A program made the translations under genes and the position numbers. From Escherichia coli (lineage in GTDB: Bacteria > Pseudomonadota > Gammaproteobacteria > Enterobacterales > Enterobacteriaceae), in NCBI RefSeq assembly GCF_003018235.1, contig NZ_CP027437.1: a stretch of 64,000 bases of DNA. The stretch is one strand, 5' to 3'. This document shows, one piece after another, positions 6,580 through 11,925 of the stretch (position 1 is the stretch's first letter; each line of letters begins with the position of its first letter). Under the pieces are notes generated by a model, which saw nothing but the letters and a program-made list of their open reading frames with translations, did no database searches and was not told the DNA's origin.

Positions 6580-7893
<1,314 letters not shown>

Positions 7894-7912
7894 GTCTGAC
7901 TTTATCTGATTT

Positions 7913-7944
7913 AAAAATGCCAGCCTTCGGGCTGGCATTTTTTA
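7913..7944. terminator. Bidirectional rho-independent terminator between convergent eno and ygcG
   Basis: aaaaatgccagcc ttcg ggctggcatttttt: GC stem flanked by A-run and T-run. Confidence 0.85.
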
Positions 7945-7952
7945 TGGTTGAG

Positions 7953-8825
7953 TTACCAGCGACCGGACGCGCCGCCACCGCCAGAAGAACCGCCCCCGCC
8001 GCTAAATCCGCCGCCACTTGAGCCGCCACCGGAACCGCTGTTGTCTGAATGATAACTTCTACCAGATGCTTTTTTCTGAAGTACACATAAACAGGTAAAG
8101 ACCATAATGGTGGTGAAAGTAAAAAAGAAGAAAAATACAGCAATGGAAAAAGTTTTATCGGAGAACAGGAATAAATCTAAAAGATAGATTGCTGAAATAC
8201 AGACACTGCTTTTACATGCGCGACAAAAATTACTGCCTTGATGAAAAAACCAGAAAGGGAAGAACATCACTGCAAATACCCAAAAAATAGCAAAGTAGTA
8301 ATGATCGCTGGAATACGCTGATTCACTTTCTGAAGGATTAGCCGAATATTGGTGTTGTGAAGTGAGTTGGTTATTTAAAGCGATTATAGCTAACTCTAAT
8401 CCCTTAGCTAATTTTTGTTGTTTAAATGCGGGTATCATGTTGCTACGGATGATATCTCCAGCCAGAGCATCGGTTACCTTTTCTTCCAGCCCATAACCTA
8501 CCTGGATGCGGACAGCACGATCCGACAAGGCAACAATGATCAGTATCCCATCATTGCGTTTGGCATCTCCTAAACGCCAATTGTTAAAAACCCTTGTAGC
8601 ATATTGTTCAATTGTCTCGTCTTTGGTTGTGGGAATAATTAATACAGCAATTTGTACTTGGGTATTATTGAAAATAGATTCTAACTTCCGCGTCAGTTCT
8701 TTCTTTTCTTGTGAGTTTAAGCTACTCGTAAGATCCGTAACTTGTTGCTGTAATGATGGGACAATAGTTGGTTGGGCTGCAACAAAGGAACACACGAATG
8801 TAAACATTAGTATGAAATAGCGCAT
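7953..8825 (-). CDS. ygcG: TPM-domain membrane protein with Gly/Ser-rich C-terminal tail
   Basis: ORF 7953-8894; start set at [18 protein letters not shown] (signal-peptide-like) giving 290 aa; C-terminus [20 protein letters not shown]. Confidence 0.8.
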
Positions 8826-9118
8826 TATAAATTTCTCATTAAATCTGGATAAATAAATTGACGGCGGCATCGGTAATTTGAGATTCGTTATCATTAAAAA
8901 CGAACACAGAAAAAATAAATATAAATTTGGTGAATGTTTTTGACATGATTAAATCCCTTTACTTTATTTATTTCTGACATAATACGTTACTCCCTTTTAT
9001 TATTAACGATCTGTTTCTCATTTTTCTTTAAACCTGCCTGTAACAGAATGTTAATAAGACATGATTGTTGTGGCAGGATCTGCAATAATTAACAATTATC
9101 CACTTCACAGAGAATGCT

Positions 9119-9790
9119 ATGCAGTACCCGATTAACGAGATGTTCCAGACCCTGCAAGGTGAGGGTTACTTTACCGGCGTCCCCGCTATTTTTATTCGTT
9201 TACAGGGATGCCCGGTCGGCTGTGCCTGGTGCGACACCAAACACACATGGGAAAAGCTTGAGGATCGGGAAGTTTCCCTTTTCAGCATTCTGGGTAAAAC
9301 GAAAGAGAGTGATAAGTGGGGAGCAGCAAGCAGTGAAGACTTACTCGCAGTCATCGGTCGTCAGGGATACACCGCGCGTCACGTGGTGATTACGGGTGGT
9401 GAGCCTTGCATTCATGATTTGCTACCACTGACTGATCTGCTCGAAAAGAACGGTTTTAGCTGCCAGATCGAAACCAGTGGTACTCATGAGGTACGCTGCA
9501 CACCGAATACCTGGGTTACCGTATCACCAAAGCTGAACATGCGCGGCGGCTATGAAGTGTTGTCACAGGCACTGGAGCGAGCCAACGAAATCAAGCATCC
9601 AGTGGGACGCGTACGTGATATTGAAGCACTGGATGAACTTTTGGCGACGCTGACCGATGATAAACCGCGAGTCATTGCACTGCAGCCGATTAGCCAAAAG
9701 GATGATGCCACACGATTGTGCATTGAAACCTGCATTGCGCGTAATTGGCGTTTGTCGATGCAAACACATAAATATCTAAATATTGCCTGA
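9119..9790 (+). CDS. queE: 7-carboxy-7-deazaguanine synthase (radical SAM), queuosine biosynthesis
   Basis: 223-aa ORF with CPVGCAWCDTKH radical-SAM cysteine motif. Confidence 0.93.
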   Translation: MQYPINEMFQTLQGEGYFTGVPAIFIRLQGCPVGCAWCDTKHTWEKLEDREVSLFSILGKTKESDKWGAASSEDLLAVIGRQGYTARHVVITGGEPCIHDLLPLTDLLEKNGFSCQIETSGTHEVRCTPNTWVTVSPKLNMRGGYEVLSQALERANEIKHPVGRVRDIEALDELLATLTDDKPRVIALQPISQKDDATRLCIETCIARNWRLSMQTHKYLNIA

Positions 9791-9999
9791 TTAAACATTT
9801 ATAAGCGTTATAAATGGGTGGAACCTGTAAAGATTTCTACTCATTTATATTGTTTGTCGCCTCTGAAAACTCCTCCATTTTACCCATCCAGGGCTAATCA
9901 TTAGCATTCTCTACAAATTCTGCGGCATTAATTTTTCGCTGGAGTGAAAATTATTGCGGTAAAGTTTGGTAGATTTTAGTCGGTATAGGATTACTTTAA

Positions 10000-10128
10000 A
10001 TATTTAGCTTTTCAATCAATGAATTAAGTGCTCTTTAACATAATGGATGTGTTGTTTGTGTGATACTGTAAAGTTGGTAGATTGTGACTGGCTTAAAAAA
10101 TCATTAATTAATAATAGGTTATGTTTAG
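10000..10128 (+). promoter_or_regulatory. AT-rich CRISPR leader (approximate bounds)
   Basis: AT-rich non-coding stretch abutting the first, leader-proximal repeat; the degenerate repeat is at the opposite end of the array. Confidence 0.5.
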
Positions 10129-10400
10129 AGAGTTCCCCGCGCGAGCGGGGATAAACCGGCCGTCGCCGGATCAGCCTGGCTATGCCAGCAGAGTTCCCCG
10201 CGCCAGCGGGGATAAACCGGACGAACAAAATAAAAACCAACTGAATGATGCGAGTTCCCCGCGCCAGCGGGGATAAACCGCGAACCCTTGAACCGATAAG
10301 GGCGCTGTTTTGGAGTTCCCCGCGCCAGCGGGGATAAACCGGATAGGTGTTACACATATGACCTGGCACTGGCGAGTTTCCCGCGCCAGCGGGGATAACC
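10129..10400 (+). CRISPR. Type I-E-style CRISPR array, 5 repeats and 4 spacers
   Basis: 29-nt repeat gagttccccgcgccagcggggataaaccg at 10129 (variant cgcgag), 10190, 10251, 10312, plus degenerate terminal repeat at 10373-10400; four 32-nt spacers at 10158-10189, 10219-10250, 10280-10311, 10341-10372. Confidence 0.95.
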
Positions 10401-10447
10401 ATTCAGGTATGTTCAGGCCGGGCAGTTTCCCGCCCGGCCTTCCTCAC

Positions 10448-11925
10448 TTACGCATTCGACCAGCTCTGGATCGAATCCGCATTCCCCAATTCCCCATGCA
10501 TCACTTCATACGATTTTTTCAGGATTACATCAGTATGTTTGGTTAACTCCTTGAAAATGCTTTTATTCATCGCGTCGTAGCGTTTGGCACTGTTCTCAAC
10601 AGGCATAAAGATATCTTTCACGCGAACCATTTTGTCGACAGCCGTTGCGTAATCCGGGTATAGCCCCAGACCTACCGCCGTATTAATCGCTGCCCCCAGA
10701 CTTGCACAACCATTAATGGCGTTACGGCGTGCCGGAAGGTTGAACACGTCGGCAAAAATCTGCATAAACAGATCGCTGTTCGAACCGCCGCCAGTAATGA
10801 TCACATGCTTTGCAAAGTGATTCATTTCATTACACATATTGTCGTAATTGTTCTTCAGCGTCAGGCCACGCTTTCCAGTATCGAACGATATATCCATGCG
10901 TAATCCATGCTGGAATCAAAGCCAATCATAATCCCGCGTTTGTACGGTTCCCACGGATTGGTCAGCCAGTCCAGCACCGTCATCAGACCATTACAGCCTG
11001 GCGGCACACAAGACGCTTTTTTGTTGAGCAAATCTTCCGGTGAAAGATCCTGTGCTTTGGCATCCTGAATTAACGACTCGCCTAACATGTCGCGTAGCCA
11101 GCTCACCGTCCACATGCCTTTGCGAATACCGTAACCTTCATACAGCAAGGTTTGCGGAATAGAAGACATAATCGGCCAGTACGCTACCGGATCTTTCGGT
11201 AGTAATTTGCCGTTCATCATCAACGCGATGTAAGTGCCAAGAGAAATTACCGCAGTTTCATCATCCAGTAACCCGGCTCCCAGTGCTTCTACCGGTTTAT
11301 CACTGGTGGTACAAACAACCGGCAGCCCAGCCGGGAAATGTGTCGCCAGCGCGGCTTGAGGAGTGATATGCCCAAGAACAGTGCCCGGCATTTGCACATC
11401 AAACAGCATATGACGGGGGATATTAAACTTCTCCATGACTGCGGCATCTTCACTCCATGCCCAGGTCTTATAATCCACCGGCCACTGACCAAAATAGTTG
11501 GCGATATTGTCTTTAAACTCGCCGGTTAAGCGATGCGTCAGATAACCTGAAAAAGAGGTGACATATGCCACGTCAGGATTCGTATGTTCGTAAGGGCGTG
11601 TAACGCGTGCATCCTGCCAGCTAATCAACGGCGCAGCTGGCGTGCCATCGGCTTTCAATAACGCACGGCAGCAACGGATGGATCCCAGACCAATACCGAC
11701 AATATCTTCTTTATTCCCGGCAAACTGACTCATCAAATCGTGACCGGCAAAACATAATGATGCCCATAAATCGTCGTCAGGATGTTCTGCGGTATCGGCA
11801 TCTGGCGTGTGCATCGGCTGCAATAAGCCTTTGCCTTCGCAAACCACATTACCTTCCAGATCATACATCACCACTTTTGTGCTCTGACTTCCGCCATCAA
11901 TCCCTATGATGTATTTTTTCGACAT
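10448..11925 (-). pseudogene. ygcE: FGGY-family sugar kinase gene split by a frameshift (two ORFs overlapping at 10861-10897)
   Basis: N-terminal ORF 10861-11925 ends ...YRSILESVA*; the other frame continues ...LTLKNNYDNM... to 10448; restoring one C in the minus-strand run gtggcc-ctgacg rejoins them into a 492-codon frame. Confidence 0.7.

Follow-up and report, generated by a model that had tools for sequence, protein, structure and literature searches.

Introduction

What is the short open reading frame (ORF) lying between ygcG and queE in Escherichia coli, and does its product matter to the cell? We addressed this question in a 64,000-nt stretch of contig NZ_CP027437.1 (assembly GCF_003018235.1), called the window below, in which the DNA around the locus has the E. 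coli order pyrG-eno-ygcG-queE-CRISPR. A preliminary description of this DNA had pointed to a minus-strand ORF of 35 codons upstream of ygcG, which could be a small membrane protein or a leader peptide, or might be there by chance.

Results

The ORF and its surroundings

The ORF opens with an ATG at 8946-8944 and closes with a TAA at 8841-8839, as both the ORF listing and the sequence have it, and its length and translation are identical to those first reported. Between the stop codon and the ygcG ATG at 8825 lies a spacer of 13 nt (8838-8826), again as described, and the AGGGA-like sequence mentioned upstream is AAGGGA (Table 1). Overlooked in that description was a second ATG at 8980, preceded by a stronger Shine-Dalgarno-like motif, AAGGGAG; it opens an ORF of 28 codons that overlaps the start of the 35-codon ORF in a different frame, and the exact product of which is absent from a collection of 15 billion proteins.

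Table 1. Features of the yqcG locus and its flanks, in window coordinates
Feature	Position	Strand	Remarks
35-codon ORF	8839..8946	minus	yqcG body, apparently read from the ancestral lemA start codon in the lemA frame
yqcG locus, whole	8839..8980	minus	142 nt; RefSeq "hypothetical protein, frameshifted" in near-identical strains
28-codon ORF	8894..8980	minus	begins at the yqcG start codon of K-12; the frameshift ends it early
ATG common to the ORF and the lemA start codon	8944..8946	minus	= L005:3805
AAGGGA Shine-Dalgarno-like motif	8954..8959	minus	7 nt before ATG 8946
AAGGGAG Shine-Dalgarno-like motif	8990..8996	minus	9 nt before ATG 8980; kept in nearly all alleles
A5 homopolymer run	8937..8941	minus	A4 in K-12 and BL21
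T6 run	8910..8915	minus	second indel-variable homopolymer inside the ORF; run length varies across alleles
Ungapped homology block to the lemA-type haplotype	8877..9300	minus	86% identity, 424 nt; = L005 3451..3874
Junction segment	8778..8876	minus	ORF 3' end, 13-nt spacer and first 16 ygcG codons; suggestive lemA-TPM1 homology
ygcG, TPM-domain protein, 290 aa	7953..8825	minus	PF04536, E = 3.7e-36
queE	9119..9790	plus	transcribed divergently from the spacer that holds the ORF

The region is AT-rich, as the preliminary description had it: the GC content is 27.8% in the ORF and 29.0% in the ygcG-queE spacer, against 52.3% in the window. When the 293-nt spacer was shuffled with its dinucleotides preserved, a complete ATG-started ORF of at least 35 codons appeared in 1062 of 3000 shuffles (35%), so that the length of the ORF is by itself no more than chance would give.

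Two further features were seen beyond queE. Just past the queE 3' end lies a CRISPR array (10129-10406) of five repeats with a 61-nt period and the core GAGTTCCCCGCGCCAGCGGGGATAAACCG, and RefSeq marks an array at the same place in strains XJ6.1 and BL21. Next to it, ygcE (FGGY-family kinase; 10448-11925, minus strand) is split into overlapping ORFs of 354 and 149 aa by a 1-nt deletion at ~10864/10865, where the window reads GTGGC-CTGACG and the intact allele GTGGCGCTGACG; the gene may be a frameshifted pseudogene, or the split may stem from an error of assembly.

The ORF is an allele of yqcG

The region was compared by megablast with 5,426 complete E. coli genomes, where RefSeq annotates a gene, yqcG, in the ygcG-queE spacer. 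It is intact in BL21 and in a K-12 derivative (141 nt, encoding 46 aa), while the 142-nt form is flagged "frameshifted" in XJ6.1 (99.8% identical to the window), S9, A1_136 and THO-015. Aligned with BL21 yqcG, the window DNA has a mean column identity of 96%, and in the C-terminal part of K-12/BL21 YqcG 29 of 33 residues are identical to the last 33 of the 35-codon ORF. The ORF must be considered real because of this homology and of that to lemA of other E. coli strains described below; rather than a chance frame, as had been allowed for, it is the 3' three-quarters of an annotated small-protein gene.

A single nucleotide, A5 versus A4, decides which of the two ATGs, 8980 or 8946, reads the YqcG body. 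Because the window has A5 and not A4, the K-12 start codon at 8980 reads only 28 codons before a stop, no uninterrupted 46-codon frame runs from it in the window, and the remainder of the YqcG frame is opened by the internal ATG 8946. The locus thus resembles that of K-12 YqcG (WP_001288228.1, YQCG_ECOLI) in lying between queE and ygcG and in its stop codon, but differs in that the body can be reached only through the internal ATG; the resulting 35 aa are without the N-terminal stretch MSEENKENGFNHV of 13 residues.

Run lengths, starts and motifs were compared across 14 sampled alleles. The T run of the window is T7 in MS15047 and T5 in 14EC001, and an extra T lies in the same stretch of MSHS133. 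AAGGGA is found in every A5 allele sampled and in lemA-type strains, whereas A4 alleles have AATGGA. According to allele-specific queries of 31-32 nt, which given the 28-mer requirement of megablast produce no cross-hits, at least 1,109 of the 5,426 complete genomes have A5 and at least 2,722 have A4; in ~1,329 others, about a quarter, lemA is found and yqcG is absent. An evenly spaced sample of 60 genomes, with 17 full-length matches of A5 type and 42 annotated yqcG genes, agrees with these counts. Since A5 recurs in this many genomes and the sample is concordant, the extra A cannot be put down to sequencing error and represents a stable allele.

These results bear directly on the view that the ORF arose by chance in AT-rich DNA, or that the extra A is an error in a K-12-like yqcG. 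An ORF as long does occur in 35% of shuffled spacers, homopolymer runs are error-prone, and some assemblies, MSHS133 among them, carry further indels; yet neither the specific homology to yqcG and lemA nor the linkage of A5 to other substitutions (AAGGGA versus AATGGA) would be expected from chance or error. Both versions are refuted by the alignments and by the recurrence of A5, and we give them almost no weight.

The exact 35-aa product is already present at NCBI on 139 contigs, named "membrane stress resistance protein" by one submitter and otherwise "hypothetical protein". All relatives of YqcG in the protein databases come from E. coli or Shigella, and scans against Pfam and NCBIfam assigned neither the 35-aa nor the 46-aa product to a family. 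The ORF is therefore the known gene yqcG in a known and already annotated allelic state, and as a discovery it is ordinary.

yqcG as a relic of lemA

The ~1,329 genomes without yqcG match the query only from queE to about window position 8912, at 80-90% identity, and carry at this place a gene annotated as "LemA family protein". In FDAARGOS_1304, for example, queE is followed by a divergently oriented lemA (202 aa), three TPM-domain genes and eno. The ungapped block shared with the lemA-type haplotype (Table 1) reaches from the 5' end of queE across the spacer and the lemA start into lemA, of which it takes in about 23 codons. Within it the start codon of the ORF is that of lemA, the AAGGGA motif is identical, the two frames are colinear codon by codon, and 12 of 30 residues are identical between the ORF and LemA residues 1-30. 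Nucleotide identity declines along the block, from 96% in queE and 88% in the spacer to 75% in the first 12 ORF codons and 53% in the next 12, and reaches background level past codon 24.

At the protein level, LemA starts with a lipoprotein signal peptide (MFRIFIAFIFIFNLSGC) whose lipobox, L-S-G-C, occupies residues 14-17. Its FIFIF core persists in the ORF, but V-F-V-F stands in the lipobox positions and there is no Cys anywhere, so that the pattern [LVI][ASTVI][GAS]C does not occur. The Pfam LemA domain (PF04011), which spans residues 32-195 of E. coli LemA, is missing entirely; hmmscan for this domain of ~150 residues found no match in the 35-aa or 46-aa product even at E <= 10. Since start codon, Shine-Dalgarno motif and frame of lemA coincide with those of the ORF, we regard yqcG as a lemA relic. 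Compared with the LemA lipoprotein gene of the E. coli/E. albertii lemA-TPM clusters (WP_000488375.1), it shares the position relative to queE, the initiation signals and frame, and the signal-peptide core, but without LemA domain and lipobox it is a remnant and not a family member.

A scan for QueE in species-representative genomes yielded 80 Enterobacteriaceae loci. Full-length lemA adjoins queE in E. albertii, E. whittamii and the GTDB representative of E. coli, and a yqcG-like sequence was found in none of the 80 species representatives, from which it follows that lemA came first and that yqcG is its stub. The A5 allele is ancestral in length and frame, because the lemA haplotype matches A5 gap-free, whereas one gap has to be introduced to align it with A4; the alignment thus identifies the 46-aa YqcG of K-12 as the derived form, in which loss of one A put the upstream ATG in frame. 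Our literature search retrieved no paper linking yqcG to lemA.

Between lemA-type (L005 and L007) and yqcG-type haplotypes, the megablast hits over the 5' end of queE and the spacer (window 8700-9250) show ~11-14% divergence, which seems high for differences within the species E. coli. The interval between queE and eno looks like a long-standing polymorphism, or else like DNA imported by recombination.

The 3' junction and ygcG

Evidence on the other end of the deletion is weaker. The junction segment (~100 nt) had no match in the lemA-type clusters of E. coli, local search there being no better than with shuffled sequence. In E. albertii its best local match within 3.7 kb is the 3' end of lemA, and in E. 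whittamii a weaker match falls on the lemA-TPM1 spacer and the start of TPM1. The targeted junction test gave z = 4.3 for E. albertii (3 of 500 shuffles), 2.1 for E. whittamii and 1.5 for two lemA-type sequences of E. coli. The gap between stop and start codon is 13 nt in both lemA-TPM1 and yqcG-ygcG.

In ygcG itself, the first residues (MRYFI...; ~16 codons) resemble TPM1, and from codon 17 on the gene has 88% DNA identity to the TPM gene that comes last in E. coli SCPM-O-B-8794. The ygcG of the window accordingly looks like a hybrid of paralogues, which suggests that recombination removed the intervening TPM genes. Taken together, the 3' part of the model, an internal deletion in lemA with fusion of TPM paralogues, is suggestive, and because the homology of the ORF 3' end to lemA is moderate the deletion breakpoint can be placed only between ORF codons 24 and 30. 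Separately, ygcG is flagged as a pseudogene with an internal stop in the K-12 derivative NEB10-beta, and 14EC001 has an IS1 insertion in ygcG along with a frameshifted yqcG.

Regulatory signals, RNA structure and the hydrophobic stretch

No terminator-like site was found between 8600 and 9400, RNA from 8800-9010 folds no better than shuffled sequences do (z = 0.13), and a permissive Rfam search of 7800-10600 left the yqcG region without a match; the four matches that it did return all scored far below the gathering scores. Runs of regulatory amino acids do not occur in the ORF. A promoter scan returned five promoter-like sites where 2.3 were expected, all of them weak consensus matches, and the sigma-70 motif TTAACA-18-GATAAT reported for yqcG-ygcG (PMC3946193) is not present in the spacer within two mismatches. 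By genomic SELEX, RNA polymerase holoenzyme bound in the yqcG spacer, which is also H-NS-bound according to one table (PMC3946193, PMC5493296).

In the sense of an attenuator, a leader peptide would control ygcG through ribosome stalling. The ORF resembles such leaders in being short and in ending right before a gene, but it has neither a terminator/antiterminator structure nor a regulatory codon run, no Rfam family covers it, and its position is already accounted for by the history of the gene remnant. This part of the preliminary description finds no support, and we consider an attenuator very improbable.

Less probable still is that programmed frameshifting or transcriptional slippage at A5 restores a K-12-like protein of 46/47 aa from ATG 8980. 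The homopolymer does sit exactly at the frame junction; however, A5 is much shorter than the runs known to support transcriptional slippage, and the context GTC AAA AAC matches no known slippery heptamer. There is no stimulatory structure, and the frame read in A5 is just that of the ancestral lemA.

Read from the sequence, the hydrophobic stretch of the ORF covers the ten uncharged residues F8-F17, between K7 and N18/D19. A segment that spans the bilayer needs ~18-20 uncharged hydrophobic residues. The stretch is closer in length to a signal-peptide core than to a membrane span and, judging by the alignment, descends from the signal peptide of the LemA lipoprotein. As for the small membrane protein first proposed, the K-12 orthologue is indeed a recognised small protein, but the stretch is short for a membrane span, and in the window the K-12 frame is broken by the extra A, RefSeq treating this form as a frameshifted pseudogene.

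Selection on the peptide

Frame conservation across strains, with synonymous set against nonsynonymous changes, had been named as a check on the ORF. The outcome argues against selection on the peptide. Strains differ in the frame, and among nine distinct alleles, in a test that treated sites as independent and used no tree, the 33 shared codons of the ORF have 14 nonsynonymous and 2 synonymous changes (pN/pS 1.7, p = 0.75 against neutral). The corresponding values are 17 and 13 in the first 130 codons of ygcG (pN/pS 0.38, p = 0.014), and 1 and 25 in the first 92 codons of queE (pN/pS 0.01, p = 6e-16). Segregating sites per site number 0.157 in the ORF, more than the 0.116 in the adjacent spacer, and the 13 codons specific to the K-12 form have six nonsynonymous changes and no synonymous one. 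The polymorphisms of the ORF look neutral, although with 33 codons and nine alleles this amounts to no evidence of peptide-level constraint and not to proof that constraint is absent.

Natural variants extend the picture. Indels in the A and T runs swap the frame of the core, replacing TFTKIIFIF by HSPKLYLFF; a 39-aa E. coli form whose core is frame-swapped (MDLIMSKHSPKLYLFF…) is present on 32 contigs. In Shigella sonnei, a 36-aa YqcG with a replaced C-terminus (…NDNESEVA) occurs on at least 1000 contigs.

One may still suppose that the 35-aa peptide has a function of its own as a small protein of the envelope or membrane, with the internal start giving a naturally shorter isoform of YqcG. The K-12 orthologue is catalogued as a small protein and named for envelope stress (PMC5821084), the ORF is intact in seven of the eight A5 alleles sampled and always has AAGGGA, one submitter's name for the exact product implies membrane stress resistance, and the ORF contains the hydrophobic core. 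Set against this are the apparently neutral substitutions at a diversity above that of the spacer, the shortness of the core (~10 residues), the common variants in which the core is swapped or the C-terminus truncated, and the roughly one quarter of E. coli genomes with lemA in place of yqcG. On balance we consider a functional isoform unlikely, although among the alternatives it is the one to be taken most seriously.

What does persist is the end of the ORF: in 12 of the 14 sampled alleles an ATG-started ORF, from one start or the other, runs to the TAA that lies 13 nt ahead of ygcG; in the remaining two, the assembly shows further damage at the locus. This fits selection, should there be any, for translation that reaches the ygcG start, and it fits equally a young relic that has not yet decayed.

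Discussion

The 46-aa YqcG of K-12 has reportedly been detected, and found to be stress-induced, in work of Hemm et al. from 2008 and 2010. First publication of yqcG dates from 2008, as cited through PMC5821084 (Hemm et al., its reference 52), and its EcoCyc name, cell envelope stress response protein (PMC5821084), is also used by RefSeq. As far as our literature search went, reports on the YqcG protein concern the K-12 allele only, and none was found for A5 strains. Deletion of yqcG in a ΔmgrB strain raises queE transcription, and PhoP binds both 300-bp segments tested upstream of queE, the farther of which was chosen because of the yqcG result (PMC4974570). The effect of ΔyqcG on queE is compatible with an effect in cis.

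With a probability of about 75%, we interpret the ORF as yqcG in the A5 state, a relic of lemA whose peptide has no sequence-specific role and in which at most translational coupling is selected. Ancestrally, a lemA-TPM-TPM-TPM operon separates queE from eno. The lemA of the yqcG-type haplotype has lost its whole LemA domain, leaving the Shine-Dalgarno motif, the ATG and ~23-30 signal-peptide codons from which the lipobox Cys is gone; that the relic also retains the final lemA codons, and with them the 13-nt distance to the gene that follows, is suggestive. The A5 allele keeps the ancestral length and frame, so that the 35-codon ORF begins at the old lemA ATG, whereas in K-12, BL21 and about half of the complete genomes one A is missing, which joins ATG 8980 to the body and gives rise to the 46-aa YqcG.

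In an A5 strain, translation of the 35-codon ORF is plausible given the inherited lemA Shine-Dalgarno motif and ATG, at which ribosomes could load. Ribosomes may also load at ATG 8980 and make the out-of-frame product of 28 aa, and by crossing the internal start these could suppress initiation at 8946. The 35-aa product would be a short hydrophobic peptide with no sequence-specific role, and what selection maintains, if anything, may be translation that ends only 13 nt short of the ygcG start: a coupling of yqcG to ygcG inherited from lemA-TPM1, which we infer from the layout of the two genes. Small ORFs left by gene decay and coupled upstream ORFs are alike in these respects, with initiation signals kept, no constraint on the amino acids and a stop near the next gene. 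The K-12 relic differs from them in having gained a new start codon by a 1-nt deletion and in that its product is a catalogued small protein.

That last point admits a further reading, namely that yqcG is a small-protein gene born from the lemA signal-peptide stub, still translated and since co-opted, with two lineage-specific isoforms. If this were so, ~20% of complete genomes would make the 35-aa form from the old lemA ATG, K-12 and about half would make the 46-aa form from the recruited ATG, and the label "frameshifted pseudogene" on A5 would be a K-12-centric error for a functional ancestral form. We hold co-option to be doubtful. A function of the peptide keeps some probability because the K-12 protein is reported as detected and stress-induced; conversely, the neutral amino-acid evolution of YqcG calls for caution in assigning it a peptide-level function.

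As yqcG is already annotated and deposited, the ORF needs no pursuit as a new gene. What the analysis adds is the view of yqcG as a lemA stub, of its "frameshifted" allele as the one with the ancestral frame, and of its peptide as lacking detectable constraint. A small protein catalogued under "stress response" looks like the signal-peptide stub of a deleted lemA, and phenotypes of yqcG deletion may act in cis on queE (cf. PMC4974570). For the ~1,100 genomes in which yqcG is called "frameshifted", the call shows no loss, because it is the K-12 reference allele that is derived.
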